From the NCBI RefSeq assembly GCF_946463545.1, contig NZ_OX296583.1, positions 1,432,902 through 1,496,901 of the forward strand: a stretch of 64,000 nt of DNA. Reading direction: 5' to 3'. The translations under genes and the position numbers were made by a program. Positions 1,809 to 63,232 of this stretch are shown here, in pieces. Under the pieces are notes generated by a model, which saw nothing but the letters and a program-made list of their open reading frames with translations, did no database searches and was not told the origin of the DNA. The DNA is from Methanothermococcus thermolithotrophicus DSM 2095. GTDB lineage: Archaea > AGJL01 > Methanococci > Methanococcales > Methanococcaceae. Each line of letters begins with the position of its first letter. Positions within the stretch are counted from its first letter, which is position 1.

Positions 1809-1810
1809 AT

Positions 1811-2034
1811 AATCACCTGAGTGAAACGAAGGTGAGTTACAAAAACCGTTAGGTTTTTGTTCAATCCCTACCTTAATAGGCGGAGGTTATTAAAAAAGTT
1901 AATGGTTATTTATCTAAATATTTGATTATATATGAAAATAGCTAATAAAATTAAATAAAGTTAACCTCCAAATCCTTTAAAAAAGGATTTGGAATCCCAA
2001 ATCCGATACCTCTTCACTTCGTGAAGAGATATAT
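1811..2034. repeat. Hairpin repeat elements in the selU-argJ intergenic region
   Basis: GAGTTACAAAAACCgttaGGTTTTTGTTCAATC (1834-1866), CCAAATCCtttaaaaaaGGATTTGG and CTCTTCACttcgGTGAAGAG. Confidence 0.6.
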
Positions 2035-6534: not shown

Positions 6535-6686
6535 ATTTTCATACTCATCTTCAAATTCAACTAAAATATCAATATCGGGTGTTTCTTGCTCCCATTTTGG
6601 TAAATCCTTTAATATTCCGATAGTTTTAACTTTGTATTTTTCTTTAGTTCTTTTTGTACTCTAAAAGTATGTTTTTTATTTCGTTT

Positions 6687-6740
6687 AAGGTTTTCGTAGC
6701 GAAGCGGAGAGCTACAAAAACCGAAGGTTTTTGTTTAATC
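6687..6740. repeat. Hairpin repeat element upstream of the truncated MNT-HEPN gene
   Basis: GTAGCgaagcggagaGCTAC, then ACAAAAACCgaaGGTTTTTGTTTAATC. Confidence 0.65.
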
Positions 6741-6816
6741 ATGATATCCCCTCGGAGCTCCCAAAAGTATATATTATGTTAATATCGTATTAATATTATA
6801 TAAATAAAAGGTGGTG

Positions 6817-10336: not shown

Positions 10337-13300
10337 ATGAATACTGATTTATCATTTTTAACTAATGAAAAGGGCAATAAACTTGTAGATAGATTTTCAA
10401 TACTATTGAAAGATACTAAATTTTTTGACTGTCTGGTTGGTTATTTTTATGCTAGTGGATTTTATGCATTATATAAATCATTAGAAAATACTGAAAAAAT
10501 TAGAATACTCGTAGGTATCAATACGGATAAAAAAACTTTTGATTTAATTCAGGAGGCTGCGGGGGACATTAAAAAATATAGACTATCATTCAAAGAAGTT
10601 AAAGAAAATTTTTCAGAAAGCATAATTTCAGAAATGGAAACTTCTGAAGACTCATGCACTGTTGAAGAAGGAATTAAAAAATTCATTGAATGGCTTAAAT
10701 CTGGAAAACTTGAAATAAGGGTATATCCCAAAGCTAAAATCCATGCAAAACTTTACATAATGAGTTTTAAAGAAGGGGATAGGGATAAAGGCAGAGTCAT
10801 TACAGGTTCAAGCAACTTCACGCGCTCTGGATTGGTGGATAATCTTGAATTCAATGTGGAATTAAAAACCAGGTCTGACTATGAATTTGCATTAAATAAA
10901 TTTAATGAATTATGGGAGGATTCGGTAGATGTTTCGGAAGAGTACGTTAGAACAGTTAATAAAAAAACATGGTTAAATGAGGACATCACGCCGTATGAAT
11001 TATATTTAAAATTCCTTTACGAATACATGAAGGAAAAAATAAATTTAGATTTAACTGATGAATTTGAAAGTAAATTCCGACCTGATAATTTTATGGATTT
11101 AAAATATCAAAGGGATGCAGTCCAAGATGCAAAACTTAAACTTGAAGAATATGGAGGAGTTTTTATTTCCGATGTTGTTGGTTTGGGAAAAACATACATA
11201 GCCACAATGTTGGTTCAGCAACTTGGTGGTGAAACTCTTGTAATTGCTCCGCCAGTATTGATTGATGAAAGAAATCCAGGCTCTTGGAAAAATGCCTTTT
11301 ATGATTTTGGAGTTAGGGGAAGATTTGTATCAAGGGGCAATTTAGATATGGCATTTGAATATGGTATTGAAAACTTTAAAAATATTATAATTGATGAATC
11401 TCATTATTTTAGAAATGAATCTACGGAGATGTATGAAAAATTATTTAGGATATGCAGTGGAAAACGGGTAATATTGGTTTCTGCAACTCCGTTAAATAAT
11501 AAGCCCATGGATATTCTTGCCCAGATAAAATTGTTTCAAAATGTTCATAATTCCACACTCCCAAATCCAAAGGTAAGGGACCTTGAAAAATTCTTTAAAA
11601 AATTAGATGCAAGACTTAAAGGAGTAGATAGGCGAAAGGACAAAGAAAAATATATGAAAATTGTTCAGGAGAATGCAAAAGAAATTCGTGAAAATGTTTT
11701 ACAGTATTTAATGGTAAGAAGGACTAGAAAAAGTATTGAGAAGTATTATTCAAAAGATTTGGAAAAACAGGGTTTGAAATTTCCAGAAGTTCAGGACCCA
11801 AAGCCAGTTTATTATGAATTTGATGAAAAGTTAGATTCAATTTTTGAAGAAACCCTTAATTTAATTACAAAAGAGTTAAAATATGCAAGATATACTCCAA
11901 TGCTATATTATAAAGGGAGAGAATTTGATAACCGAATTATTCAGCCACAAAAGAATATGGCAGGATTTATGAAAACCATGCTTTTAAAACGGCTGGAGAG
12001 TAGTTTTCACGCATTCAAGATGTCAATTAATAGGTTTATAGGTTATTACGAAAAATTTATAGCTGGATGTGAGGATGGTAATGTTTATATCAGTAAAAAA
12101 CATCTATCCAAAGTTTTTGAGTTTCAGGAAAACGATGATGAGGAGTCCATTGAAAAGTTAATAAGTGAGGGAAAGGTGGAAATCTACCCTATTAAAGATT
12201 TTGAGCCTAAACTTATTGATGACTTAAAATATGATTTAGAGATTCTAAAACATATAAAAGAAATGTGGAGCTCCGTTGATGAAGACCCGAAACTTGATAA
12301 ATTAATCGATATTTTAGAAACAGATGATGTGTTAAAGGATAATAAGGTAATAATATTTACAGAATCAGAAGAAACTGCAAAATATCTTGAAAGGGAATTA
12401 AATCCCTTGTTTAATAATAAAGTTTTGGCATTTTCTGGAACTTCTGACAATAGTTTAAGAAAAATTATAACTGAAAATTTTGATGGAAAATCAAAGGTTA
12501 AAAAGGATGAATATATGATTTTAATTTCAACAGAAGTTCTTTCAGAAGGTGTAAATTTACATAGGTCAAATGTGGTAATTAACTACGACATTCCTTGGAA
12601 TCCTTCAAGAATGATGCAGAGAGTGGGGCGTATAAACAGAGTAGATTCCAAATTTGATAAAATATATATTTATAACTTCTTTCCAGCAACAAAAATAAAT
12701 GAAAATATGGGTTTGAAGGAAGCCGCAGAGGCTAAAATTAGAAGTTTCATTGAAATGCTTGGAACTGATTCTAGGTTATTAACCGATGAAGATATAAAAT
12801 CCTTTGACTTATTTTCACGCCTTAACTCAAAAGAAACAGTCATTGGGGAAGATGAGGACGACCCTGAGTTGGCATATTTAGCATATTTGAGAGATATTCG
12901 AGACAATGATAAGGAATTATTTGATAAAATAAAAAACCTTCCTAAAAAAGCAAGGACTGCAAAAAAACATAATGAGAATTATAATTCACTGATTACATTC
13001 TTTAAAAAGGGAAAAATGAGAAAGATATATCAAACTACACCAGAGGGAGTTAAAGAACTTGATTTTTATAAGGCCGCAGAGATTCTAAAAGCAGATATTG
13101 ATACAAAAAAGATGAAAATTGGAATGGACTATTATGCTCATCTTGATATGCTTAAGAAAGAATTTAATAAAGTATTCGAAGAGGAACATGTTATTTCAAA
13201 AATTAAAATAAGAAGAAGTAGGAATGAGTCTAAATTAATTAAGTTAATAAAAGCCATAAAACAGAATGAAAGAAGGCTCACGGATGATGATGTAGAGTAT

Positions 13301-13540
13301 CTCGACAGGGTGTTGAAACTTATTGAAATAGGCGGTGTATCTAAAAATACCATAAAAACTATACTGGATAATATTAAAAAAATAAATAATAATAGTGGCA
13401 TGCTTGATTTATTCAAAATGTATAACGAGATAAAAAAAGGAATACCTTATGATTTATTCCAAAAATTAGAATTTAACTCATCGGCAAATATTGAGGGGCC
13501 TAAGGAAATAATTCTTTCTGAATATTTAGTGGGGAAGTAA
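10337..13540 (+). CDS. PLD-family nuclease fused to SNF2-family helicase (defense-type helicase-nuclease)
   Basis: N-terminal HxK...GSxN phospholipase-D motif (KIHAKLYIM...GSSNFT). SNF2 motifs GLGKT, DESH and SAT are present. The C-terminal helicase domain has the ...QRVGRINR motif. Confidence 0.85.
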   Translation: MNTDLSFLTNEKGNKLVDRFSILLKDTKFFDCLVGYFYASGFYALYKSLENTEKIRILVGINTDKKTFDLIQEAAGDIKKYRLSFKEVKENFSESIISEMETSEDSCTVEEGIKKFIEWLKSGKLEIRVYPKAKIHAKLYIMSFKEGDRDKGRVITGSSNFTRSGLVDNLEFNVELKTRSDYEFALNKFNELWEDSVDVSEEYVRTVNKKTWLNEDITPYELYLKFLYEYMKEKINLDLTDEFESKFRPDNFMDLKYQRDAVQDAKLKLEEYGGVFISDVVGLGKTYIATMLVQQLGGETLVIAPPVLIDERNPGSWKNAFYDFGVRGRFVSRGNLDMAFEYGIENFKNIIIDESHYFRNESTEMYEKLFRICSGKRVILVSATPLNNKPMDILAQIKLFQNVHNSTLPNPKVRDLEKFFKKLDARLKGVDRRKDKEKYMKIVQENAKEIRENVLQYLMVRRTRKSIEKYYSKDLEKQGLKFPEVQDPKPVYYEFDEKLDSIFEETLNLITKELKYARYTPMLYYKGREFDNRIIQPQKNMAGFMKTMLLKRLESSFHAFKMSINRFIGYYEKFIAGCEDGNVYISKKHLSKVFEFQENDDEESIEKLISEGKVEIYPIKDFEPKLIDDLKYDLEILKHIKEMWSSVDEDPKLDKLIDILETDDVLKDNKVIIFTESEETAKYLERELNPLFNNKVLAFSGTSDNSLRKIITENFDGKSKVKKDEYMILISTEVLSEGVNLHRSNVVINYDIPWNPSRMMQRVGRINRVDSKFDKIYIYNFFPATKINENMGLKEAAEAKIRSFIEMLGTDSRLLTDEDIKSFDLFSRLNSKETVIGEDEDDPELAYLAYLRDIRDNDKELFDKIKNLPKKARTAKKHNENYNSLITFFKKGKMRKIYQTTPEGVKELDFYKAAEILKADIDTKKMKIGMDYYAHLDMLKKEFNKVFEEEHVISKIKIRRSRNESKLIKLIKAIKQNERRLTDDDVEYLDRVLKLIEIGGVSKNTIKTILDNIKKINNNSGMLDLFKMYNEIKKGIPYDLFQKLEFNSSANIEGPKEIILSEYLVGK

Positions 13541-13541
13541 A

Positions 13542-15143
13542 ATGGATAGAAAAAATGCCGTAAAACTTGTTGAAAAAACTTTTGGGGGAGAGTTTAATGA
13601 GGATAGGTATTTAGAATTCGTTATCGAGATGTTTGGAGACAGTAGTTTTTTAAAATCTCCTAAGGAATATTCGATGTGGGAAGAATATGCTGAATATACT
13701 GATTCTCTCAAATATTACGGGACATATACGGACAGTTCCAATAAAACAATAGATGTTCTATCTGTGAGATTAAAAAAAGATAAATATGTTACTAAGTCGA
13801 GGACTGTGCAAAGGAACATTATTTTAAAGTGGATTGGGGGTACAAACAAAGATGGTGCATTAGTTGCATTTTACAGTGATGAGCTCGACGACTGGCGGTT
13901 TTCATTTGTTAAAATGGAGTATAAAATTACAGAAGATTTTAAAATTGAAAAGGGTTTTACTCCTGCTAAAAGGTGCTCCTTTTTAGTTGGGAAAAATGGG
14001 GCAAACTATACATGCAAAAAAAATTTTTTAAGATTGATAGTAAATGAAAATAACCCTGCTTTGGAAGAAATTGAAAACGCTTTCAATGTTGAAAATATAT
14101 CTGATGAGTTTTTAAGAAAGTATGAAAATTTATTTTCGGGTAATACTCATAACTTAAAAATTGAAGAATCACAAATAATGGACTTAAAACATATAATGTT
14201 AGATTATGGGCGTTTGCCACTTGATAATCATCAAAAAAATATTTTAGATAAACTATTGAAAACCACAAGTAAAAACATTAAACGTTTCTTAATTAAGTAC
14301 AAAAACAACTGTAATTATATACCCATCTCTGATTTTAAATTGAGAATGTTATTGTCGGATGAAGAATTAATTTTGTGTATCTTTAAAAATATGAAGTATG
14401 TGGGGAAAAATATAATATATTTGGATAAAACAGAATCAGAAATTGAAAAGGAACGCATTGAAAAAAACCAATTTAATAAATTGTTACTAAAATATAAAGA
14501 CTTATATTGTCCAGATGGTCAAATTGAGATCATATATAAGATTCTTAAGTCTCAGACAGATGAACTAAAAAATATGTTGCTAAATTATGAACATATGTCA
14601 CTTGATAATCATCAAAAGCAAATTTTAGATACAATACTGAAAACTATCGGTAGGAAGATATCATACATGAATATTTGGGTACATGATAAAGGCGGGATTA
14701 CGAATACATACTCTTACAAAAAATACAAAATGAAAATGAGTAATAAAGACTTTGCATTATTTATTCTTAAAAATGCAAAGTGGAAAAATGGGACACTATA
14801 TATTAATGAGCATAAGTGTGAAAAACAGTCATCAACTTTAAAGAAAGACAATACAGTCAAAAGAAGGGTAAAAACTAAAATGGTTATAACTTCATCAAAG
14901 AAAGTTGGAAAGTTGGAAAATATAATCATAAATAATAAATTAATGGTTAAAAAAGTTATGAGCTGTAAGTTTAATGATAACAATAATAAACTAATAGTTT
15001 ATGTGGAGCATAATAAAAAACCATTAAAAATAACTATTATTGGAAAAAATAATAAACATATTTGTTATATAAACCAGAAGGGACTTAAAAATAAAGAAAT
15101 AAAAGAAATTAAAAATAAGTATATAACACATTTAACAATTTGA
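13542..15143 (+). CDS. Paralog of the Type IIG enzyme N-terminal nuclease-like domain fused to a K/N-rich C-terminus with an internal ~30-aa duplication
   Basis: The first ~200 aa are near-identical to the N-terminus of the 15225 gene. Some DNA tracts are 100% identical. A candidate PD-(D/E)xK core is D...ELDDW...VKMEYK. The C-terminus carries two LDNHQK.ILD..LKT repeats. Confidence 0.55.
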   Translation: MDRKNAVKLVEKTFGGEFNEDRYLEFVIEMFGDSSFLKSPKEYSMWEEYAEYTDSLKYYGTYTDSSNKTIDVLSVRLKKDKYVTKSRTVQRNIILKWIGGTNKDGALVAFYSDELDDWRFSFVKMEYKITEDFKIEKGFTPAKRCSFLVGKNGANYTCKKNFLRLIVNENNPALEEIENAFNVENISDEFLRKYENLFSGNTHNLKIEESQIMDLKHIMLDYGRLPLDNHQKNILDKLLKTTSKNIKRFLIKYKNNCNYIPISDFKLRMLLSDEELILCIFKNMKYVGKNIIYLDKTESEIEKERIEKNQFNKLLLKYKDLYCPDGQIEIIYKILKSQTDELKNMLLNYEHMSLDNHQKQILDTILKTIGRKISYMNIWVHDKGGITNTYSYKKYKMKMSNKDFALFILKNAKWKNGTLYINEHKCEKQSSTLKKDNTVKRRVKTKMVITSSKKVGKLENIIINNKLMVKKVMSCKFNDNNNKLIVYVEHNKKPLKITIIGKNNKHICYINQKGLKNKEIKEIKNKYITHLTI

Positions 15144-15224
15144 ATATATATTGATTCCAAAAATAGATTTAATCGGTTAGTAGGTATGAGGAACTTAAAT
15201 AAAACTTTTTTGAGTAGTTAATAG

Positions 15225-18200
15225 GTGGAACCAATGGATAGAAAAAATGCCGTAAAACTTGTTGAAAAAACTTTTGGGGGAGAGTTTAATGAGGATAGGT
15301 ATTTAGATTTTGTTGTTGAAATGTTTGGGGATAGTAGTTTTTTAAAAGAATCTCCTAAGGAATACCTGTGGAAAGAATATAGTGAATATGCCGACTATCT
15401 TAAGTATTACGGCACATATAAGGATAGCTCCAATAAAACAATAGATATTTTATCTGTAAAATTAAAGAAAAACAAGTATAGGGATAGATCAAGGACTATG
15501 CAGCGGAACCTTATTGCAAAATGGCTTGAAAATGCAAATAAGGACGCTGCAATAGTTGCATTTTATGGCGATGAGCTCGATGACTGGCGGTTTTCATTTG
15601 TTAAAATGGAGTATAAAATTACAGAAGATTTTAAAATTGAAAAGGGTTTTACTCCTGCTAAAAGGTGCTCCTTTTTAGTTGGAAAGAACGAACCAAACCA
15701 TACCTGTAAAGAAAGATTTCTTGGCATGATAATAGCTGAGAAAAACCCAACTTTAGAGGAAATTGAAGAAGCATTCAGTGTTGAAAATGTATCCGATGAG
15801 TTTTTCAAAGAATATAAGGAGTTATTTTTAGATTTAAAAGATGAGCTCGACAAATTATTGGAATGTGATAAGGACATTAAAAAGGAATTTGAAGAAAAAG
15901 AGATTTCTACAGTGGATTTCGCTAAGAAATTGCTTGGACAGATTGTATTTATATACTTTCTCCAAAAAAGGGCTGGCTTGGTGTTCAAAGAGACCCTGAA
16001 ACTGGGAAGTTTAAAGAATGGGGAGCTGGTCCAAAAGATTTTTTAAAGAGGTTGTATGCGGGAGAATATGCCAAATATGAAAATTTCTTTAAGGAGATGT
16101 TGGAACCATTATTTTATGAAGCGTTATCTACTCAGAGGGATGATTACTATTCTCCTTTTGACTGTAAAATCCCTTTCTTAAATGGGGGACTATTTGAACC
16201 TATTGGGGGCTACAATTGGAAAGAAATTAATTTAAAATTGGACAATGGAATTTTTGAAAAAATTTTTAATGTCTTTGATAAGTATAATTTCACAATAAAA
16301 GAGGATGAACCACTGGATAAAGAGGTTGCTATTGACCCTGAAATGCTTGGGAAGGTTTTTGAAAACCTATTGGAGATTAAAGATAGGAAATCAAAAGGGG
16401 CATTCTATACTCCAAGGGAAATAGTGCATTATATGTGCCAGCAGAGTTTGATTAATTATTTGGAAACGAATACGGACATTCCACGGGAAGATATTGAAAA
16501 ATTCATATATCTCAGTGGATTTTCAACTTCGGAATATCAAAGAAAATTAATTGAACTTGAAAAAATAAATGAACAGATGAAAAAGTTTAACAATGTTTTA
16601 TCAAAAGGATACAGAAAATTATTAAATGAGCGAATAAAGTTAATTAAAAATATAAACTTTCCAAAAAGCATATTGGATAATATAGAAAAAGTTGATGAGC
16701 TATTAAGATGCGTAAAAATAGCAGACCCTGCGGTTGGTTCTGGTGCTTTTCCAGTTGGGATTATGAATGAGATTGTAAAGGCAAGGTCTATATTAACACC
16801 TTTCTTAATAGCAAAGAATAGTGCAAAAATGGAAGACCGGACACTTTATAAATTAAAATGGGAAACTATTCAAAACTGTTTATACGGCGTAGATATTGAT
16901 TCATCTGCTGTGGAAATTACAAAACTTAGGTTTTGGTTATCGTTGGTGGTGGATGAGGATAGCCTAAATAATATAAGGGCATTGCCAAATTTAGACCATA
17001 AAATAATGTGTGGAAATAGTTTGTTGGATGAATTTGAAGGAATAAAACTTTTTGATGATAGTATTCTTGAAATTCCCGAAGAAGAAGATAAAGAACCTGA
17101 GGAATTAAAAAAATTGAAAATTGAAAGGGAAAATTTAGAAAAAACCGCTAAGGAATTGATGTTAAAACAAAAATGGAAGGAACTTGAACCAGTAAGTAAA
17201 AAATTAAATGAATTATATGAATATATTAAAAAATTGGAAAATCAATATAAAAAATCAAAAAATAAAAATTTGAATGATTTACAATCTCAAATTACACTGT
17301 CCGATGCTATAAATATTAGGCGGAAAAAATCACAGGAGAAACTTGCAGAGCTCAAAAAATTGTATAAAGAATATTTCAATGCCCGAGCTAAACGGGATAA
17401 AAATGAGTATAAAGAAAAAATAGAAAAACTTGAATGGGAGCTCATAGAGGAAACACTAATAGAATCAGGAAATGAAGATGCACTGGAAAAATTGAAGCAG
17501 TATAAAAAATCAAGGTCAAAACCATTTTTCTTATGGAAGTTGTACTTTTCAGATGTATTTAGGAGAGAAAACCCTGGCTTTGATATAGTAATAGGTAATC
17601 CACCTTATGTAAGGCAGGAAAAAATAAAAGAATTAAAACCCGCACTTGAAAGAAATTATAAAACATATACTGGAGTTGCTGACCTTTATGTTTATTTCTA
17701 TGAGTTGGGATATAATATTTTAAGAGATGAGGGAGTTTTAGCATATATTACAAGTAATAAATGGATGAGAGCAAATTATGGCGAAAAATTAAGAAAATTC
17801 TTTAAAGAAAATACGAGTATAAAGGAAATTATTGATTTTGGAGGGGAAAAGGTATTTGAAACTGCAACAGTGGATACAAATATTTTGATATTTAAAAAAG
17901 GATATAAAAAAGATAATTTAATGTCTGCGGTGGATTTCACAAAAATTAAAAATTATAATGGATTTATCGATGGGATAAAAAGCAATAGGTTTAAAATACC
18001 GCAATCAGATTTGAAAGAAAATTCCTTTAATTTATCGCCACCAGAGGAATTAAATTTAAAAAAGAAGATTGAAAAAATTGGAATACCTTTAAAGGATTGG
18101 GATATAAAAATAAATTATGGAATTAAAACAGGTTTTAACGATGCTTTTATAATTGATGGAAAAACTAAGGATGAATTAATTAAAAAAGACCCAAAGAACA

Positions 18201-19048
18201 AAGAGATAATAAAACCGATTTTAAGGGGAAGGGATATAAAACGATATGGTTATGAATTTGCGGATTTATGGTTAATTTTTGTTCCTTGGCATTTTCCATT
18301 GCATAATAATTCATCAATTTCTGGGGCATCAGAGGAAGCCGAAAAGGCATTTAAGGAGCAATATCCTGATATATACAACCATTTGCTAAAATATAAGGAA
18401 AAATTAAGTAAACGAAATAAGGCTGAAACTGGAAAAAGATATGAATGGTATGCTTTACAGAGATGTGCCGCTTCGTATTATAAGGAGTTTGAGAAAGAAA
18501 AAATAATTTATCCAGAATTTAGTAGTTCATCTTGCTTTTATTTTGACAATGGGAAATATTACACATCTGATACGGCATGGTTTATTGTTGGAGGTTCTAA
18601 ATATTTGATGGTATTACTTAACTCGAAGGTAATATGGTTTTACTTAGAAAACATGGTATCCCAGCTCGGTTCGAAAGCCCTTAGGATGAAAAAAATATAT
18701 TTAGAAAAACTACCTATCCCAAAAATCCCAGAAGACCAACAAATCCCATTCATAGAAAAAGCGGATAAAATGATTGAATTAAATAAAAAATTCATAAATA
18801 AAAAGAATGAATTTTTAAAATCATTAAACCTAACTAAAATTACTAAGAAATTAGAAACATTTTATAATTTAAGTTATGAAGAATTCCTAAAAGAATTAAA
18901 GAAGCAAAAAATTAATACAGATTCTTTAAACGATTTAGAAAACCGCTTCAACAGCTACAAAAAGGAATTAATGGAAATAAAACAGGAAATAGAAAAAACA
19001 GATAAAGAAATCGATAAAATGGTTTGTATAATCCTAAAAAAACTATAA
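15225..19048 (+). CDS. Type IIG restriction-modification enzyme (N-terminal nuclease domain plus gamma-class N6-adenine methyltransferase plus target-recognition domain), interrupted by a frameshift at a T6 run (16039-16044)
   Basis: The ORFs 15225-16046 and 16052-19048 join into one frame if T6 is read as T7. Methyltransferase motif X (GAFYTPREIV), motif I (ADPAVGSGAFP) and motif IV (GNPPYV) are present. Confidence 0.8.
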
Positions 19049-22339: not shown

Positions 22340-22457
22340 CTGTGCAATGATGAGTGCCGACTTCACTGAGATTATCGCCAATTCCGATTTTGTTGTTGGT
22401 GAGCTGTGAAACTAAGATTTCACAATCAATGATGACATCGGGGACGACTGAGCACAG
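22340..22457 (+). ncRNA. Box C/D sRNA with an unusually long (~60 nt) D'-to-C' spacer containing a hairpin
   Basis: C box UGAUGA (22348-53), then a 12-nt guide, then D' CUGA (22366-69). C' UGAUGA (22430-35), then a 12-nt guide, then D CUGA (22448-51). Terminal stem CTGTGC/GCACAG. An internal TGTGAAA/TTTCACA hairpin lies in the spacer. Confidence 0.55.
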
Positions 22458-22502: not shown

Positions 22503-25500
22503 TTAACTAAAATCAAACAAAGTTTGCTGACCATATTTCAAATCAAATTCTTCTAAGACTTTTTTTCCGATTTTATCTCCAAGCAAACTGATGACTTTTG
22601 ACTGGTTCTTTGGAATGTCATCTTTGCTTTTTATTCCAGCGTTGTATAGTTTTCTGGCCCTAACTCTTCCAACGTGTTTAATTTTGAGTAACTCAATGAT
22701 ATCTTTTTTAGCACCATACTCGAGTCTTATCTCCAATTCAGATAAACAGTCTTTGATTTGTTCATTTTTTAAATTTAATTGATTAAATATTTCTTTTGCA
22801 GAATATGCCATCCATTTAGCCTGTTCAACTTTGTACTTTAAAATCCCAGGTTCAATTCCATACCTTTTTAATATATCCTCCTCTGGAACCTCATTAATCC
22901 AGTCGTAGAACATCTTTGCAGTTTTAAAGCTTTCTAAATTTTCCCAGGAATAATCATCAATATTTAAGTCCATCATTTCTAAAATTAAATCTTCTTCTTC
23001 ATGATTTCTTACTCTTAAAGGGGGCCTCATTTCCGTGGTCATTGACAGTACATATAACATATAGAGCTCTAGATTTGTATTTAACTCAGAGGATTTGTTG
23101 ATCTTTTTTAATCCATCTATAATTATTTTTGCACTATATGGATCAATATACAGTTCTGAAACTCTTTTCCCAAGTTTTGTTGGTGTAAATGCAACGATAA
23201 AATCATAATCCTCTAAAAAATCAACGACTTCTTTTACATTCCTCAAAACTCCTTGGAGACTTCCATACTGGTGAGCATAAAATGTGTTTTTTATAAAGTT
23301 TTTTAAATCCATTTCATTTTCAACTTCCCTCGTGGATATCAATCCAAGGATATGGGTTCTAAGAACTTTTTGATTGGAAAGTTTTGAGTATATGTCCTCC
23401 ACCTTTCCAGTTAAGTATTCAAAACCTTTTTCAACATCGTTTGGATTTTTTATATAGACTATTCCTTCACCATAAGGATCTAAACCAGGTCTCCCGGCTC
23501 TTCCAATACATTGCTGAATTTCCATTTTTGAAATTGGAGCCATACCTCTACCGGAAAATCTCTTTAAATCCCTTACAATTGCTCTTCTACAAGGTAAATT
23601 TAGTCCAGCAGAGTTATGTACTATAAATCCATTTGCCACAACATAATGGTCATTTGTCCCATCATCTGGTAGTTCTATGTCATAAGCATATTTGTCATTT
23701 ACCTTTATTTTTTTAATTTCTTTGATCATGCTCCAATAAATATCTCCATCATAATATTCTTTTTTCCAACTATGTCTCATTTCTTTGTAGAGTGGCTTGC
23801 CACAAATTGGGCATTTTTCAAGATTTACTAAGAAGTCATACATTTCTTCTAAGTTCTCTTTATCTTTTATATTTTTATTAAGAAGATTCATTAAAATTTT
23901 TCCTTTATCATTTAGAGAATAATATACTCCTTTTTTATTTCCACCTATCTTTTCTCTTATGATAAACTCAAAATGGGGATTCTTTCTCTTTGAATAGTAG
24001 TTATTGTAGTTCATAACCAATTTTTTTCCATTTAATAGTTCAAAAAGTAATTTTACACGCTCTTTATTTAATTCATTCTGACTTTTTGTTCTTGGCTTAA
24101 ACATAGTTAAATCAATGCTAAATCCGCAATCACACCACATTTTAGCAATTTCCTTACTTTTTACGATTTCTTCCAATTTTCTTCTTTTTTCCTTGTGTCT
24201 CAGTGGAATATTTTCATAAAATCTTTTTACACTTACAAAATCACCAATTATTAGTTCATAAATATCTCTACTTTTGTATTCTTTATTATTTGTTGGCGAT
24301 CGAAGCGAATCCTTTGGATTCGCTGTCGAAGCAAATCGAAGATTTGCTGACTCACGAAACCTTCGGTTTCGTCGAGACTTACAAAACCTGAAGGTTTTGT
24401 TAAGCTTCATAACTTTTCCTTTTCTTTTTCTAATGGTGCTATGTATTCCAAACCTCAATAATGCTAATTGTAGTTTTTTGATTAGATTTTCTGATATCGA
24501 AGAGAATCCTATTTTCTTTCTGTTGGCATTAATGTATCCATCACTATCAAACAACCCTGCAATAAAGTGTGATAACTTTTCCAATGGAAGAATGTAAAAT
24601 ACATCAATATTTTTGTTATCCTTAGTGAGCATATTTAATTCATTAAATACTTCCCTTAGTCTTTTTGAATATACATAATGAGAAACATTTCCTTCCTCTT
24701 TAATTTTTAAAAAGTATTTTTTGTGAAGTTTAGAGTCATCAAAATTTGGCGGGTATTTTGGATTAAACGTAATATCGGGACTACCTCTAAATACATTTTT
24801 TTCGATAACACCGGTATAGCCATCTCCTATAAAATATCCAATGAAATAAAGGTCCCCATAGGATAAATCAATATCTCTTTCTTCAACCACTATTTTATCA
24901 GCAGTAGCCACATAGTCCCCCACTTTTAAATCCTTTGCTTCTTTTTCACAGGTCTCTTTTCCTTTTTTAACTAAGAACAAATGATTGGGGGTTGTGGTAA
25001 TTTTTAGCCCATTTGCGGTTTTTACAACAATATTATATTCATGTTGCGGGGTTTTATGAACTTTCCAACAATCCACTGGTCTTATTTTATTTCCACACAA
25101 TGCAAATACCTTTTCATTTTTATTCAATTCTGTAATCTTTTTAAATCCACTTTCTTGCAATATCTCGGTATTTGCATTTAAACAGAGTGTCGGAGTACAG
25201 CATATAACCTTTATCAGTTTCTTTCTGAATCCTTCTTCAACTATTTTCCTCTGTTCATAGGTAAGACCTGCATGGTGAAATGCCACCCCTTTTTCAATAC
25301 ATTCTGCAAGAGCTCTACAGGTTTCAGTTGGTGGATCGAATATGCTTAAAACTTCGTCTTTCAGTTTTTGAAGTTCGTGTTTTTCACTGTGGGATAAGTA
25401 TTTCTTTAAATTCAATTTTTTTGCTTCACTAACCGCTCCTCTCTTAGAATTACAAAAAATTAAACATGAACCATCTTCATCGATACAATCTACAACCAAA

Positions 25501-26261
25501 TTCATAATGTCATTTTTATAACTATCGTTTAGGGGTTTTTGGAGTGAGCGAAGCGAACGGAGAGCAACGAAATCACTCTTCGTGATTTCGTCTAATGAAT
25601 TATTTTCATCAATGTATTCTATTTTGTTTTTATAGAATATTCCTTTTTTTAATTCCACAGGTCTCCAATCATCAATTACAAGTGTTGCATTTAGCCAGTT
25701 TGCAAGTTCCTCTGGATTCCCAACAGTTGCAGACAAACCGATTAATTGGATATTATTTAAATTCTTTAATTTCGTTAAAATGATCTCAAGGGTTCCTCCT
25801 CTTTCATCATCCCCTATTAAATGGATTTCATCTACCACTACAACAGAAACCTTATCTATCCAATCGATCCTATGTCTCATTAAAGAATCAAGTTTTTCAG
25901 CAGTAGTTATGATTAGATCGTAGCTCGATAAATTCTCTTTTTCATCAAAATCTCCAATGGACAAAGCCACTTTTAAACCATATTTTTCATATTTTTCTTT
26001 AAACTCGTCGTATTTTTCATTTGCAAGGGCTTTTAATGGAACTATAAATAGTCCCTTTTTCCCTGTCGGTTGTTTGTTTTCATCCAATAGATGGTTTATT
26101 AGGGCTATCTCTCCAATAAGGGTTTTTCCACTGGCTGTAGGGATGCATATTAAAAAATTCTTTTGTTTATCAAGTAGTCCATGTTCCAATACCTTTTTTT
26201 GCGGCGGCCTAAGTTCCGTTATGCCGTTGTCGTTTAATACACTAAAAACATAATGCTGCAT
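22503..26261 (-). CDS. hel308: Hel308/Hjm Ski2-type DNA helicase containing a 524-aa intein
   Basis: Walker A PTASGKT and DEIH motifs are present. The intein is inserted in motif VI (TPTL|C...HN|SAGLNLPCRR). The extein portion is about 728 aa. Confidence 0.85.
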   Translation of the reverse strand: MQHYVFSVLNDNGITELRPPQKKVLEHGLLDKQKNFLICIPTASGKTLIGEIALINHLLDENKQPTGKKGLFIVPLKALANEKYDEFKEKYEKYGLKVALSIGDFDEKENLSSYDLIITTAEKLDSLMRHRIDWIDKVSVVVVDEIHLIGDDERGGTLEIILTKLKNLNNIQLIGLSATVGNPEELANWLNATLVIDDWRPVELKKGIFYKNKIEYIDENNSLDEITKSDFVALRSLRSLQKPLNDSYKNDIMNLVVDCIDEDGSCLIFCNSKRGAVSEAKKLNLKKYLSHSEKHELQKLKDEVLSIFDPPTETCRALAECIEKGVAFHHAGLTYEQRKIVEEGFRKKLIKVICCTPTLCLNANTEILQESGFKKITELNKNEKVFALCGNKIRPVDCWKVHKTPQHEYNIVVKTANGLKITTTPNHLFLVKKGKETCEKEAKDLKVGDYVATADKIVVEERDIDLSYGDLYFIGYFIGDGYTGVIEKNVFRGSPDITFNPKYPPNFDDSKLHKKYFLKIKEEGNVSHYVYSKRLREVFNELNMLTKDNKNIDVFYILPLEKLSHFIAGLFDSDGYINANRKKIGFSSISENLIKKLQLALLRFGIHSTIRKRKGKVMKLNKTFRFCKSRRNRRFRESANLRFASTANPKDSLRSPTNNKEYKSRDIYELIIGDFVSVKRFYENIPLRHKEKRRKLEEIVKSKEIAKMWCDCGFSIDLTMFKPRTKSQNELNKERVKLLFELLNGKKLVMNYNNYYSKRKNPHFEFIIREKIGGNKKGVYYSLNDKGKILMNLLNKNIKDKENLEEMYDFLVNLEKCPICGKPLYKEMRHSWKKEYYDGDIYWSMIKEIKKIKVNDKYAYDIELPDDGTNDHYVVANGFIVHNSAGLNLPCRRAIVRDLKRFSGRGMAPISKMEIQQCIGRAGRPGLDPYGEGIVYIKNPNDVEKGFEYLTGKVEDIYSKLSNQKVLRTHILGLISTREVENEMDLKNFIKNTFYAHQYGSLQGVLRNVKEVVDFLEDYDFIVAFTPTKLGKRVSELYIDPYSAKIIIDGLKKINKSSELNTNLELYMLYVLSMTTEMRPPLRVRNHEEEDLILEMMDLNIDDYSWENLESFKTAKMFYDWINEVPEEDILKRYGIEPGILKYKVEQAKWMAYSAKEIFNQLNLKNEQIKDCLSELEIRLEYGAKKDIIELLKIKHVGRVRARKLYNAGIKSKDDIPKNQSKVISLLGDKIGKKVLEEFDLKYGQQTLFDFS
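23613..25184 (-). mobile_element. Intein with LAGLIDADG homing-endonuclease domain inside hel308
   Basis: Starts with Cys after TPTL and ends with His-Asn followed by Ser. LAGLIDADG-type blocks LYFIGYFIGDGY and IAGLFDSDGY are present. Confidence 0.8.
24295..24412. repeat. Multi-hairpin repeat element inside the intein coding sequence (in frame)
   Basis: Contains GCGAATCCtttGGATTCGC, GCAAATCgaaGATTTGC, GAAACCttcgGGTTTC and CAAAACCtgaaGGTTTTG. It encodes an Arg-rich peptide FRFCKSRRNRRFRESANLRFASTANPKDSLRSP. Confidence 0.7.
25541..25592. repeat. Hairpin repeat element inside the hel308 extein coding sequence (in frame)
   Basis: Contains GAGCGAAGCGAACGGAGAGC plus the ACGAAATCACtcttcGTGATTTCGT hairpin. 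It encodes DEITKSDFVALRSLRSL between helicase motifs. Confidence 0.65.
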
Positions 26262-31200: not shown

Positions 31201-31585
31201 GATTTCATCTCGTTTATTTTAATCTAAATAAAATTCACTTCAATTATTTTAATTCTCCTTGTTAAATTGTAAAGATTGCCGTCCCCTAATATAGTGATGT
31301 GCAATTTCAATTAGTATATTACACACATTTAAATTAAATCGAGACAAATTCCAAGGAATTTTAGACTCACAAAACCATCGGTTTCGTCGAGAACATAAAA
31401 TATTGTTTAATTTGAAAATATGACAATTAAAAATAAATTTCAGGTGCAGTTTATTCGTAATACACACTCTCTATAAAACACCGACTACTATTACTACCAT
31501 TGTAACATAGTATATAATAATATATAATATTAAATTCTTAAAATTCAACGTACTATATTGTGTAAAAAATATCAAGGGGGTAACA

Positions 31586-33456: not shown

Positions 33457-33950
33457 AATCCCACCATTTATAAATAAATGTCGTTTTATTATATGATAAA
33501 ACCTTCGGTTTTGTCGATTAGTTTTTTAAAAACAACAATATTAGTAAACTCCTAATTTTACAACCTACATTTAAATTTTAAGTATAAAAAGGTTTTTAAC
33601 TAATTATTTAAAAAGGTATGGCACAAAAATTAAGCAATTTGTGTAAAGAATATATGCAATTATTCACAAAAATAATAAATTAGTATTTTTTTAGTATTAT
33701 CAAAATAGATAGTTTATTAATTTTCCTTTTTAAAAATATAAAAAATATGCCATTGTAATTTACAAAGGCATAATATGCATTATAACAGTTTCGAGTTTTA
33801 CTTAAAGGAAATTCGAAACTTAATTTATAATTGTGAATGTAATAAAGTGATATTATTTTTATCCTTTATCCATTTTGGACAAAATTAAAAGTACTCCAAA
33901 AAAACCAAAATATTATATATTCTAAAAATCAAATTATATTTTGTGATATT

Positions 33951-39022: not shown

Positions 39023-40586
39023 ATGAAGTTTAGGAATTTGTTGATTGGGATATTATTAGTTGGGATTTTTGTAAATGTTGGAGTTGTTTTTGGAGAGGAT
39101 GTTGTAAAGCCAGAGTGGGCATATCATTTAGGTGATTGGGCAAGTGCTATATCGATAACTCCTGATGGAAAATATATCGTTGCTGGAACGGGGGGCTATG
39201 GAGGTAATGGTGATTATAAAGTTTACTTATTTAATAATAAAGGAAACTTACAGTGGTCTTATAAAATAGATGGTAAAGTAGAATCTGTGGCAATAACTCC
39301 AGATGGTAAGTATATAGTTGCGGGAACATGGTTTGACAAAAATGGAAATAATCATAGAGATTCAGAAGACTATGGGAAAGTATATCTTTTTAATAAAGAT
39401 GGAAATTTATTGTGGAGTCGTAATTTAAATCCTACAGTATATGATGTTTCAATATCTTCTGATGGAAAATACATTGTTGTAGCATATTCCAATAAGCTTT
39501 CTGTTTTTGATACCAAAGGGAATCTATTATGGTCATATGAAACATACAGGTGGATATACTCTATATCGATAACTCCTGATGGAAAATATATCGTTGCAGG
39601 AACTGGCAGCACCGGTGACTATGGTAGGGTTTATCTATTTGATTAATGAAGATAATGTATTGTGGAGTTATAATGCGGGTTTTGTTAGATATGTTTCCAT
39701 AACTCCGGATGGAGAATACATAGTTGCTGGAAAAACCCCTCATGGAACAAATAATGGTCAAGATGACGAAAATACAATTTATTTATTTAATAAAAATGGA
39801 AAATTACTTATGAGTTATAATGTTAAAGGAAAAATTCGTGAAAAATCTATATCAATATCACCGAATGGTAATATTGTTGTTGGTACCTGGGTTGATGAAA
39901 ATAAAGACAATGTAATGGACCCTATGGATACAGGATATATTTACTTTTTTGATAGTGGTGGATTGAAATGGAAGTACCATACTAATGAAGGTATCCACTC
40001 TACATCCGTAGATTTTAATGGCAAATATATAGTTGCTGGAGGTACTCATGGTTCAATATACTTGTTTAATAATAATGGAGATACATTGTGGAATTATAAA
40101 TTACAACGATTAATTACGGTTTCTATAGACTCATATGGAAAATACATTGTTGTAGGGTCATTATTTGATATTTATTTATTTGATAACCAAAAAATATTAG
40201 AAATTTTAAAAGAAAAAGACAATGGAACACTTGAAATATCATCAAATCTACCAAATGCTAAAATTTATATTGATGGCAAATATAGTGGATTAACTCCAAA
40301 AACTATTAAATTACCGCCTGGAACTTATGAAATTACACTAAAAAAAGAAGGATACAGCGATTATAAGACCATACTAACCATCAATGGTGGAGAAACTAAA
40401 AATTTAAACGTTAATTTAAAACCTGTAGTTGCAGAAACAACTAATACACCCAATACTAAAGAAGAAAAAGTTTCTGTGGGGACTAATACTAATAAGGATA
40501 ACAACAACCTGTTATTTATAATCATGGGGCTATTAATAACTGGCGGAGTAGTAGGTGGGATTTATTATGCAAAAAAAAAGGCATAA
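39023..40586 (+). CDS. Secreted, C-terminally membrane-anchored PQQ-like beta-propeller protein, interrupted by a 1-nt frameshift near 39641-39646
   Basis: Signal peptide, then repeated ...ISITPDGKYIVAGT...VYLFN..GNLLWSY blades. Deleting one nt in GATTAAT restores ...RVYLFDNEDNVLWSY. C-terminal transmembrane helix. Confidence 0.7.
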
Positions 40587-41775
40587 GGGAGAATCTAAGA
40601 TTCCAGACTTTCCAAGAGAATTATTAAACAAATACATTCCACTACAAAAATTAGGAGAAGGTGGATTTGGAAAAGTATTTAAAGTTAAAAGAAAAGGCGG
40701 AACATTACCATTAGCAATAAAAACACCTAACTTAAACGAAAAAGCTAAAAAATACTTATTAAAAGAAATCAAAGCATGGAAAAATCTTAATCATCCAAAC
40801 ATAGTTAAACTATATGATACATTCACAGAACCAATCCCGCATATAGAAATGGAATATATTGAAGGATGTAACATAAATGGAAAATCAGTAAAAGATTTAG
40901 ATGATTATCCAAAACCATTAAATCCAAAGGAAAGTATTAAACTAATAAAACAAATAGCAGAAGGGTTAAAACACGCTCATGACAAAAACATAATCCACAG
41001 AGATATTAAACCATCGAACATCCTATTAACTCAAAATTTAACACCAAAAATAACAGACTGGGGATTGGCAAAAATAGGGGCAAAATCATCAACAGCAACA
41101 ACCACAAAGGGATTAACTTTACTATATTCAGCACCGGAGCAAATAGATGAAGAAGAATACGGAAAGACAGATAAAAGAACGGATATTTATCAGTTAGGAG
41201 TTTTATTCTACGAGTTATTAACCGGTAGATTACCTTATGAAGGAACTTCACCAGCTCAAGTATCATTAAAAATAGTAAATCCAGATAAAAAACTACTACC
41301 GCCATCAAAAATAAATCCTAATTTGTCAATATTTGATGGAATATTTGAAAAACTCTTGGCAAAGAAAAAGGAAGATAGATTCCAATCAATAGATGAGTTT
41401 TTAGAGGCTTTAAATTCATTAGGAGAACTAATCAAAGAAAAAGAAGGGTTCAAAAACACATTAACCAAAACCATACAAAAACTAAAAACATCAACTGACA
41501 AAAAAGAGATTGAAACATTAACTAAAGAGCTCATAAACTCAACAACAAAACTTGCTTTAAACTGCGCAGATACAAATGATAAAGTTGGATTATTGGAGGC
41601 ATTGGAAATATTAAAAGATCATGCCAAATCAGATGAAAATAGAAAGGACTTGGAAGGAGCAATAAAACATATAGAATATTTAATAAAAGAAAGCATCCCT
41701 CTTGGAAAAGATACTAGGGAGAAACTTAAAGTTTTAATCAATAGGATTAAGAGAGATGAAAATAAAATATATTAG
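40555..41775 (+). CDS. Ser/Thr protein kinase (Hanks-type) with helical C-terminal domain
   Basis: GEGGFGKVFKV, AIK, HRDIKPSNILL, DWGLAK and APE motifs are present. Confidence 0.85.
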   Translation: MGFIMQKKRHKGESKIPDFPRELLNKYIPLQKLGEGGFGKVFKVKRKGGTLPLAIKTPNLNEKAKKYLLKEIKAWKNLNHPNIVKLYDTFTEPIPHIEMEYIEGCNINGKSVKDLDDYPKPLNPKESIKLIKQIAEGLKHAHDKNIIHRDIKPSNILLTQNLTPKITDWGLAKIGAKSSTATTTKGLTLLYSAPEQIDEEEYGKTDKRTDIYQLGVLFYELLTGRLPYEGTSPAQVSLKIVNPDKKLLPPSKINPNLSIFDGIFEKLLAKKKEDRFQSIDEFLEALNSLGELIKEKEGFKNTLTKTIQKLKTSTDKKEIETLTKELINSTTKLALNCADTNDKVGLLEALEILKDHAKSDENRKDLEGAIKHIEYLIKESIPLGKDTREKLKVLINRIKRDENKIY

Positions 41776-53660: not shown

Positions 53661-54194
53661 ATACTTATGTGCATACCATTCGCAGAACGACTATATATTC
53701 ATCTATATCGACAACATTGCATATGTAATAATGAAAATTACTTTATATAATCGTAACATCCATGATGAGCTCAGGAACATTCGTAATAAAATTGCACATG
53801 CTGATGTTGGTGAATGGTAAATCGAACAATGCCATTGGAAAAACAGATGAGTATTACAAAAAAGTAAAAGAAACGCTGAATAAAAAAGAGTTGTTTGATT
53901 TGCCAAAACAGTTACCTATGGAAAAACTGGTAGAGCTGTATGGGATCCAAAAAAATGGTAATATCCAAAATGCCTACCAGTGTTTATCACCCATAATTGT
54001 AAAAAAATTATGTAGTATTTATGATCTGAATTCAAAAAAAACAGTATGATTGTAACTTAACAATTGAAAAATTTAAAAGTTTGTTTAACTTAAAATCCTC
54101 AATTTAAAAACTATAAACTGCAGGAAATTATATGAAATTCCTTCGGAATTTCATCGATTTCTTGCAGATATGTTAGAATTGCACCCCACCATAA

Positions 54195-57883: not shown

Positions 57884-58288
57884 GTATTAATAATAATTTT
57901 AATAATCGTATATAAAATTTACTATTTAATTTAAATTTTTAATATTATAATAATATAAAATTTTAAAAAGTATTACTAAATGAGTTGATACTTATTTTCC
58001 AATAAAATTTTAATAGACAGGGAAAAGTTATTGCGATAAATGAGGCGTTGAATTTGGACCGTAGGTAAAAAATCGTATAAACTAATTGCATATCTAAATA
58101 TATTTTAAAAATATTGAAATTAATTTATATATTGAAAAGTTTAAATTTGTCAAAAATGAAAAATATAATAGTTTGCGTTAAATATTGAAATATACTCCAA
58201 TAAATTTAAGAAAGATGGATTATTTTAAAATTTGAAGCATAAACATTTTACAATTATTCAAGAATTTCGAAACATATAAATATCAACT

Positions 58289-58335
58289 GCAACCGTAGGT
58301 TGCAGGGAAGTTGAATAATCGTAGATTATTCAACT
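58289..58335. repeat. Two adjacent perfect hairpins in the fdh/DUF89 divergent intergenic region
   Basis: GCAACCgtaGGTTGC and GTTGAATAATCgtaGATTATTCAAC. Confidence 0.6.
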
Positions 58336-62426: not shown

Positions 62427-62816
62427 TAGTTTATTTTTTTAAATTTTTTATCTATCTTTAATAGTCTTCATTATTTTTTAATTTTATTTGTTTATTGTTT
62501 TTATTTTTCAAATACAAGCATAGATTACCAATCTCGAACCGATCACGTTTTATGATTGTTGTATATATTTAGATTTAATAATTTATAAAGATATTGTTTA
62601 GTCATGGTGTTAGAGACGGTTTTATCATGTTTTCCTTACAAATATTGTTTATTTTTTTGTTTATGCAACTGCATGTTCTTTATTTTAGAAAATAAAACCA
62701 ATTATCAAGTCGCACGTCTTTATATATGGAGCTCCAGATCATAGGTTCGAGATAAAAAGTTTTAAATAATGGAAGATACAACCTTCTTTATAGGGAAATA
62801 AGGAAAATTCTTAACT

Positions 62817-63054
62817 GTTAAAATCAGACCATTGTGGGATGGAAATCTTTTTGTGTTCTCTCATTTAGTTCTTCCTTAGATTTTTTACGTTAAAATCAGA
62901 CCATTGTGGGATGGAAATGAAATAAAATCTGACATTTTTTTTACCTCCTTTATTTGTTAAAATAAGACCATTGTGGGATGGAAATTTTGCAGTCGATAAA
63001 TGTAATGGTGAAAGGGGAATTTCTGTTAAAATCAGACCATAGTAGGAAAATAGA
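62817..63054 (+). CRISPR. Mini CRISPR array with 4 repeats (3 spacers), repeat GTTAAAATCAGACCATTGTGGGATGGAAAT
   Basis: Repeats at 62817-46, 62889-918, 62956-85 (1 mismatch) and 63025-54 (degenerate terminal). Spacers are 42, 37 and 39 nt. An AT-rich leader lies at 62430-62816. No cas genes are in the window. Confidence 0.8.
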
Positions 63055-63060
63055 AATATA

Positions 63061-63232
63061 CCTACTCAACGAAGTTGAGTAGGTATCAGATTTGGGGATC
63101 CAACACCTCTCGACGAAAACCTGAAAGGTTTTCGTGAGTCTCGACAAAAATTCAAAGAATTTTTGTGAGTCAGCGAATCCTTTGGATTCGCTTCGACAGC
63201 AAATCGAAGATTTGCTTCGATTTATAAAGGGG
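63061..63232. repeat. Multi-hairpin repeat element immediately 3' of the CRISPR array
   Basis: CCTACTCAACgaaGTTGAGTAGG, CGAAAACCTgaaAGGTTTTCG, ACAAAAATTCaaaGAATTTTTGT, GCGAATCCtttGGATTCGC and GCAAATCgaaGATTTGC, separated by TCGAC/GTGAGTC flanks. Confidence 0.7.

Follow-up and report, generated by a model that had tools for sequence, protein, structure and literature searches.

What happens to a protein-coding gene when palindromic repeat DNA lies within its reading frame, and how does such DNA come to be there? The question is raised by the hel308 gene of Methanothermococcus thermolithotrophicus DSM 2095, contained in a stretch of 64,000 nucleotides of contig NZ_OX296583.1 (positions 1,432,902 to 1,496,901, RefSeq assembly GCF_946463545.1). 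This whole stretch is here termed the window, and positions are counted from its first letter. A first-pass annotation of the DNA had claimed that the open reading frame (ORF) of hel308 passes without a stop through two members of a family of hairpins, one in the extein and one in the intein. The ORF of 1252 codons is indeed uninterrupted, with zero internal stops over 1252 aa. We consider it probable that the two segments are mobile mini-elements tolerated in frame in loops of the protein. Part of the evidence comes from the copy in the intein, where 0, 2, 4 or 6 hairpins were found at one and the same site in different alleles.

The host gene encodes a Hel308 helicase interrupted by an intein with a LAGLIDADG homing endonuclease. 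Pfam identified the domains DEAD, Helicase_dom4_arc, Intein_splicing and LAGLIDADG_3 in the ORF, the matches of its product in the PDB were Hjm and Hel308, and helicase motifs, domain 4, two LAGLIDADG motifs and the C1 and HN/S+1 junctions are all present. The Hel308 product, CbiM and a third protein of the window are exact matches to RefSeq proteins of M. thermolithotrophicus. By comparison with intein-less orthologues the junctions were located at TPTL/CLNANTE (start) and FIVHN/SAGLNLP (end). The fold of the AlphaFold2 (AF2) model of the intein matched PI-PfuI, the TliVMA intein, PI-SceI and I-DmoI. The first-pass annotation had assigned one of the two copies to the homing-endonuclease part of the intein, and this was confirmed by its position in the LAGLIDADG domain. 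The locus may accordingly be described as layered, with a putative mobile element within a homing endonuclease, within an intein, within a DNA-repair helicase.

The hel308 gene on the Logan contig L021 is 93-95% identical to that of the window and displays an exact empty site, GTTATGAAA/TCACCAAC, without the 105 nt that occupy positions 24300-24404 in the window. The bounds of the empty site (ATGAAA/TCACC) are unambiguous and the target is not duplicated. Since an allele this similar has an exact empty site, the intein copy is a proven insertion. It had earlier been delimited as 24295-24412; the basic peptide then reported, RFCKS...LRSP, was found (aa 625-656, nt 24294-24389), but the limits were not those of the true insertion. 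A 107-aa ORF on the plus strand at 24274-24597, antisense to hel308, was rejected as a gene, since nothing but the absence of stops from the antisense reading of the array keeps it open.

Other alleles are occupied at the same site to different extents. In Methanothermococcus sp. Ax23 (L001) and in a JGI contig (L022) only 54 nt are present, CTTGACAAAACCTTCGGGTTTTGTAAGT followed by CAGCGAATCCAAAGGATTCGCTTCGA, which encode LDKTFGFCKSANPKDSLR and correspond to the outer unit of the window array without the inner unit. The array of the window consists of the outer unit and a second unit of 51 nt located exactly between the two hairpins of the former. The arrays of L120 and L121 are 162 nt long (6 hairpins), and the site of these further insertions is the A/B junction of the inner unit itself, at 24349/24350. 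L120 contains a third unit of 57 nt at this innermost junction, GTGAGT^CAGC, and L121 contains at the same junction another 57-nt unit with a sequence unlike that of L120. Over approximately 10 kb on both flanks of the nested insertion the identity of L120 and L121 with the window is 99.95%, and the differing units are therefore taken as recent and independent events in one population. The members of the 90% cluster of the window Hel308 protein are 19 aa longer, because a third nested unit is present in their DNA. The unit of L121, an ENA contig (L121 5900-5970, corresponding to 24349/24350 in the window), carries an in-frame TGA, and hel308 is called there as two ORFs of 645 and 618 aa. Split hel308 products of this kind were also detected in several ENA and JGI contigs, and the L121 type of hel308 may be a pseudogene in the natural population. 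A damaging, stop-bearing unit is as expected of a selfish element.

The unit measures approximately 54 nt. Hairpin A (CTYGAC..GTRAGT) is separated by a linker of some 2 nt from hairpin B (CAGCRAATC..GATTYGC), which is followed by a TCGA tail. In an alignment of 14 distinct units, hairpin A was found to have 11 pairs with one bulge (CTY.GAC to GTC.RAG), and compensatory changes, e.g. CTC..GAG versus CTT..AAG, were evident in 7 of the 20 stem pairs, with both stems kept. Because of this covariation the structure of the unit is regarded as being under selection, either as DNA or as RNA. Lengths of 51, 54 or 57 nt were found for the coding copies and of 53-59 nt for the non-coding ones, the pattern to be expected if frameshifts are selected against. 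Nested arrays also occur commonly outside coding DNA, and the units in an array are co-oriented. The ends of the unit, CTYGAC... and ...GCTTCGA, are not inverted repeats, and neither the intein site nor the nested sites show a duplicated target. A second unit type starts with a similar hairpin, followed by a second hairpin or by the motif CTCTCCGTTCGCTTCGCTCACTCC, and is flanked on both sides by an ambiguous 3-nt AAT.

The extein element is of this second type (TTAGAC-hairpin-GT, then CTCTCCGTTCGCTTCGCTCACTCC) and consists of the hairpin ACGAAATCAC-GAAGA-GTGATTTCGT and the conserved 24-nt tail CTCTCCGTTCGCTTCGCTCACTCC. After a similar hairpin the tail was also found in eight other loci, with 24/24 identical positions in L066 and 91-96% identity in the other seven. 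For this copy, too, the reported peptide, DEITKSDFVALRSLRSL, was recovered (aa 224-240, nt 25542-25592), but the unit is best delimited as 25542-25595 and not as 25541-25592. The alignment with orthologues that had been proposed as a check, and that gave the empty site of the intein copy, was only partly decisive here: no similar peptide was found in any orthologue outside the immediate lineage, but neither was there a close empty allele. Intergenic DNA of L120 and L121 contains, roughly 120 nt downstream of the hel308 gene, a two-hairpin unit of the extein class (CGCTTAC..GTAAGCGAGCAACGAAATGC..GCATTTCGTCTAAT) that the window is without. The second class of unit is therefore considered to be mobile too. 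From the alignments we infer that the extein segment is probably an insertion of 54 nt, corresponding to aa 223-240.

In the structure models both inserts are located in surface loops, each flanked by modelled strands or helices, and form low-confidence segments of otherwise confident models. The mean predicted local distance difference test (pLDDT) score of the intein model is 83.6, and the sole stretch below 50 comprises model residues 257-291 (aa 623-657), that is, the insert. It is placed between strands 251-253 and 295-297, past the second LAGLIDADG helix, and from the established LAGLIDADG fold we take this position to be the loop of the last beta-hairpin in the DNA-binding sheet of the second subdomain. 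The AF2 model of the N-extein (mean pLDDT 85.4) drops below 50 at aa 222-236 and at its cut end, and the alignment of Hjm from Pyrococcus (2zj2) to Hel308 contains a 19+4-residue gap at the extein segment. The extein copy, first stated to lie between helicase domains, instead falls in a loop where the second RecA domain begins. A basic peptide loop and a stable stem-loop in the mRNA had been foreseen, and the calculations agree with both: the intein insert peptide has a net charge of +9, and the mRNA is predicted to fold at -50.7 kcal/mol (z = -6.6) over the intein array and at -18.8 kcal/mol (z = -2.6) over the extein unit. The insert peptides are probably neutral or slightly harmful, and not useful.

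The hairpins of hel308 belong to a dispersed family. Hairpins containing GC and with a stem of at least 8 bp were found 18 times in the window, which has a GC content of 30.8%, versus 1.1 expected from 30 first-order Markov simulations with a maximum of 3. Within hel308 there are four perfect stems of 8-9 bp at 24304-24400 and one stem of 10 bp at 25567-25591, and the GC content of the segments, 45% for the intein copy and 50% for the extein copy, is high compared to the 32% of the gene. All the hairpins of the window outside hel308 are intergenic (1810-2028, 6686-6745, 31339-31392, 33491-33519, 54132-54154, 58287-58335 and 63058-63220). A search of the whole window against Rfam at gathering thresholds gave zero matches. 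A count in low-GC loci totalling approximately 650 kb gave 81 A modules and 65 B modules, and intergenic copies are present in many such loci. The composite of hairpin modules at 63058-63220 directly follows a short CRISPR (clustered regularly interspaced short palindromic repeats)-like array at 62811-63057, which has four copies of about 30 nt (TTAAAATCAGACCATTGTGGGATGGAAAT) at a spacing of 67-72 nt. In the related loci L119, L102 and L094 the same composite has one additional module, inserted between GGAT and CCCC.

A metagenome scan with hairpin B and its tail returned 93 stretches, and in the low-GC stretches among these, intact units were found inside long open frames of several genes in related metagenomic archaea. 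In-frame units were present in an M20 peptidase (KLDKNPKGFCKSANPKDSLRY), a B12-binding radical SAM protein (LGKNSSSFCKSANPSDSLRK), a P-type ATPase (KLDENSSSFRKSANPKDSLRK) and an unannotated protein of 251 aa, and a preferred orientation and phase was displayed in all four by the pattern KLDxNxxxFxKSANPKDSLR. In a DDE transposase a unit lies within the frame in the opposite orientation. The family B DNA polymerase PolB harbours an antisense array between the conserved N-terminal sequences MDVLIDLNY and DFKPYFYV, with four hairpins in L102 and six in L092, the added 54 nt being located at the central junction. Placement of the PolB insert by way of solved structures was rejected, as HMMER had aligned the peptide encoded by the insert to native N-terminal residues. 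A comparison of a 177-aa concatenation of element open frames with a large protein collection yielded 112 candidates, none of which scored, Hel308 included, and was uninformative.

The hairpin family is present in Methanococcus aeolicus and Methanothermococcus sp. Ax23. None of its hairpins were found in 22-kb samples around hel308 from Methanocaldococcus sp. FS406-22, Methanococcus maripaludis and Methanothermococcus okinawensis, samples that are too small to establish absence. In Methanotorris igneus, 9 hairpins of another family (L125 5309-17044), built as GGCAAAACC-loop-GGTTTTGCC and TCGAACC-GAA-GGTTCGA, were discovered in a sample of 22 kb. Since this species has a hairpin family of its own, hairpin mini-repeats appear to be a wider trait of the order, with lineage-specific sequences.

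The hel308 gene has also crossed between genera together with its inserts, as far as the alignments indicate. With both inserts included, the gene of M. thermolithotrophicus (22525-26174) is 99.1% identical to that of M. aeolicus Nankai-3 (L025 10127-15689), and the sole other stretch of Nankai-3 matching the window lies in a flanking gene and has 76.8% identity. Another M. aeolicus strain, CP104873 (L023), is 98-99.7% identical to Nankai-3 outside the hel308 block, and its own hel308 is intein-less. The first 126 nt of the Nankai-3 gene retain the M. aeolicus sequence. A block of about 5 kb in Nankai-3, including three downstream genes, thus seems to have been replaced by recent inter-genus transfer. 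The moved block includes neighbouring genes, and homing by the intein endonuclease is therefore not required.

The history of the units in hel308 may be depicted as follows: small, non-autonomous mobile DNA elements probably landed in frame in the gene, and the in-frame copies would persist because the loop they contribute is disordered and placed where the protein surface tolerates it. Units insert in one orientation and without target-site duplication. They preferentially enter the linker that separates the two hairpins of a unit already in place, resulting in growth from the centre outwards, from 2 to 4 to 6 hairpins. The units might move as single-stranded hairpin DNA, with a transposase acting in trans. 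It is conceivable, and we propose it tentatively, that an HUH/Y1 enzyme of the IS200/IS605 type drives this movement. Such an enzyme, in the style of either IS200/IS605 or REP/RAYT (repetitive extragenic palindromes and their associated tyrosine transposases), fits better than a miniature inverted-repeat transposable element (MITE), because the insertions are precise and oriented and have neither duplication nor terminal inverted repeats. A bolder and rather doubtful version would be that the two-hairpin unit of about 54 nt ranks with the smallest transposable elements known and is still active, that it integrates as single-stranded DNA into the 2-nt linker of its own copies and that it currently reshapes essential genes (hel308, PolB) as well as the intein endonuclease in natural Methanothermococcus populations.

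Several observations weigh against the segments being mobile mini-elements. No transposase or autonomous partner was found in the 650 kb of low-GC loci, and a search in the same loci for A and B hairpins 0.2-4 kb apart gave a single pair, at 1.9 kb, which encloses ordinary genes. The 5′ flanks, AAA and ACA at the primary sites and AGT at the nested ones, give no one clear target motif. The empty allele of L021 (93-95%) is nearer to the window than are the two-hairpin alleles (86.5%), which requires either precise loss or excision, recombination of alleles or more than one insertion at the same site; the outer unit itself is identical in 52/54 positions between lineages whose flanks are 86.5% identical. 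The extein segment is present in L021 too, no close allele is without it, and the length of the extein loop varies among orthologues anyway. These last points would suit an old variable loop that only resembles the family, or that was the source of the repeat, and the length does differ in all orthologues, the loop of the window being 15 aa longer than in other Methanothermococcus and 6 aa longer than in M. aeolicus CP104873. An old loop is nevertheless very unlikely, as 54 nt with 50% GC stand out in a gene with 32%, the full two-part architecture of the family is present with a tail that recurs in L066 and seven other loci, a unit of the same class is freshly inserted in L120 and L121, and the peptide occurs in no orthologue outside the lineage.

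Instead of transposition, a local process of replication slippage, unequal exchange or ectopic gene conversion among short, similar hairpin modules might have made the arrays grow. Similar modules only a few bases apart favour misalignment, and the A-A-B-B arrays elsewhere could be templates for conversion. Symmetric central growth, A[AB]B, is however not produced by single slippage events, and the added units are unlike their neighbours and, in L120 and L121, unlike each other, while the flanking modules are identical to those of the window. Moreover, both the first insertion in the intein and the intergenic one at ~22382 hit sites without a resident module, and local growth is accordingly judged improbable. 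The inserts could also have been kept because they are useful, either by a basic loop that alters the DNA contacts of the endonuclease or by mRNA stem-loops that tune the translation of hel308 or the stability of its transcript. The +9 peptide is modelled in the loop that joins the final two strands of the second LAGLIDADG subdomain, in the DNA-binding sheet of this fold, the predicted mRNA fold is strong, and the four-hairpin allele, given its 99.1% identity in M. aeolicus Nankai-3, has spread between genera. Usefulness of this kind is hardly to be expected, though, when close relatives differ in having alleles with 0, 2, 4 or 6 hairpins, one variant being interrupted by a stop codon, when the same unit is found in unrelated proteins and in intergenic DNA, and when the peptides are modelled as disordered; the spread to Nankai-3 took place in a block of about 5 kb with neighbouring genes, for which homing by the endonuclease is not needed. 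Short repeats can mislead assemblers, but an assembly or sequencing artefact in this repeat-rich region has a practically negligible probability, as the same sequence is found in the M. thermolithotrophicus genome, in the complete genome of M. aeolicus Nankai-3 and in several independent Logan, JGI, ENA and NCBI assemblies. Mobile mini-elements tolerated in frame thus remain the reading we prefer for hel308, and the positions of the features concerned are given in Table 1.

Table 1. Location of hel308, its intein and the hairpin elements in the window.
Feature	Position	Strand	Remarks
hel308 ORF	22503..26261	minus	Host gene; 1252 codons, 1252 aa; from ORF list, Pfam and exact match to WP_018153927.1
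Intein	23613..25184	minus	aa 360-883; LAGLIDADG homing-endonuclease domain; bounds from intein-less orthologues
Four-hairpin nested array	24300..24404	minus	105 nt = 35 codons; LNKTFRFCKSRRNRRFRESANLRFASTANPKDSLR; aa 620-654; in endonuclease domain
Outer unit, hairpin A	24377..24404	minus	CTTAAC AAAACC TTCA GGTTTT GTAAGT
Inner two-hairpin unit	24326..24376	minus	51 nt; CTCGACGAAACC..GTGAGT + CAGCAAATC..GCTTCGA; nested between outer hairpins A and B
Outer unit, hairpin B and tail	24300..24325	minus	CAGCGAATCC AAA GGATTCGC TTCGA
Extein element (putative insertion)	25542..25595	minus	54 nt = 18 codons; LDEITKSDFVALRSLRSL; aa 223-240
Polymorphic empty site	22380..22383		L120/L121 carry a 44-47-nt two-hairpin unit of the extein class; window without it
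Relative of extein element, intergenic	1810..1870	plus	Looser relative
Relative of extein element, intergenic	6686..6745	plus	Looser relative; read on opposite strand
A-type hairpins, intergenic	31339..31392	plus	GACTCAC..GTCGAGA; 93% match to 24349-24377
Nested array, intergenic	63109..63220	plus	A-A-B-B layout as in intein copy; adjoins CRISPR array

Two other groups of genes were noted in the window. A block on the plus strand at 10337-19048 resembles a defence system and includes a PLD-nuclease/SNF2-type helicase of 1067 aa and an Eco57I-type methyltransferase of 998 aa with a TaqI-like specificity domain. Between the helicase and the methyltransferase lie two unannotated genes (533 and 273 aa) that share a repeat with 83-94% identity at a distance of 1692 nt. 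The region 39023-41775 encodes beta-propeller repeat proteins of WD40/PQQ-like type, one of which has a PEGA domain, and after them a Ser/Thr protein kinase of eukaryotic type (Pkinase, E = 9e-50). The direct-repeat families D2, D3, D6, D9 and D10 correspond to the propeller blades of this region.

The first-pass annotation named no archaeal equivalent of in-frame palindromes, but one has been published. The MJRE of Methanocaldococcus jannaschii (Suyama, Lathe, Bork 2005, FEBS Lett 579:5281) are palindromic repeats of which some lie in frame in protein genes, as cited in PMC2229807 and PMC2996958. The likeness to the hel308 family, drawn from the description in these two citing papers, is that MJRE1-3 belong to the same order, Methanococcales, and are dispersed palindromes, mostly intergenic, with a few fused in frame without breaking genes. 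The phenomenon as such is thus already known, archaea included, and the hel308 case provides an unusually clear record of ongoing mobility. To our knowledge, insertion in an intein, central nesting and polymorphism within a population are not part of the MJRE description.

In bacteria, the closest likeness is with the Rickettsia palindromic elements (RPE; Ogata et al. 2000, Science 290:347), which are intergenic as well as in-frame palindromes with one preferred frame, usually located in surface loops and neutral or slightly harmful. The RPE, regarded as old and immobile, are single long palindromes of 105-146 bp, whereas each of the hel308 units of about 54 nt has two hairpins apart from one another. 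These units are stacked one within the other, and their presence varies between genomes with 99.95% identity. The features of RPE and MJRE2 were all found for the hel308 family, i.e. a dispersed family, a stem-loop palindrome, an open frame read through, restriction to a lineage and, according to the models, a position in loops.

REP sequences and bacterial interspersed mosaic elements (BIME) with their RAYT resemble the hel308 units in being short, imperfect and clustered palindromes that an HUH tyrosine transposase presumably moves in the form of single-stranded hairpins, without target duplication. The REP are extragenic, alternate in orientation, have a GTAG head and are linked to a RAYT, while the hel308 units are co-oriented, nested and present in coding sequence; no RAYT-like gene was seen in a search that was not systematic. 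Terminal inverted repeats and target-site duplication, by which classical MITEs are recognised, are absent from units of the hel308 type. A further comparison is offered by the mini-elements derived from IS200/IS605, e.g. PATE of Haloquadratum. Shared features are precise ends, oriented insertion, a hairpin near each end and the lack of both terminal inverted repeats and target duplication. The hel308 units differ by being far smaller (51-59 nt), by having no parent insertion sequence with the same ends in the 650 kb of low-GC loci and in that no single target motif of 4-5 nt is evident.

Compared with these systems, and with the MJRE known from citing papers, the endonuclease of an intein as the host site, nesting from the centre outwards and direct evidence of current mobility look new. 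Selfish palindromic DNA inserted in frame is one proposed route to new protein loops. The known cases of RPE and MJRE2 are old and static, whereas in hel308 the rate of insertion, the choice of target and the cost to the host become measurable. If the unit were indeed an active element, it would provide a tractable archaeal system in which the de novo insertion of protein loops could be watched as it happens.

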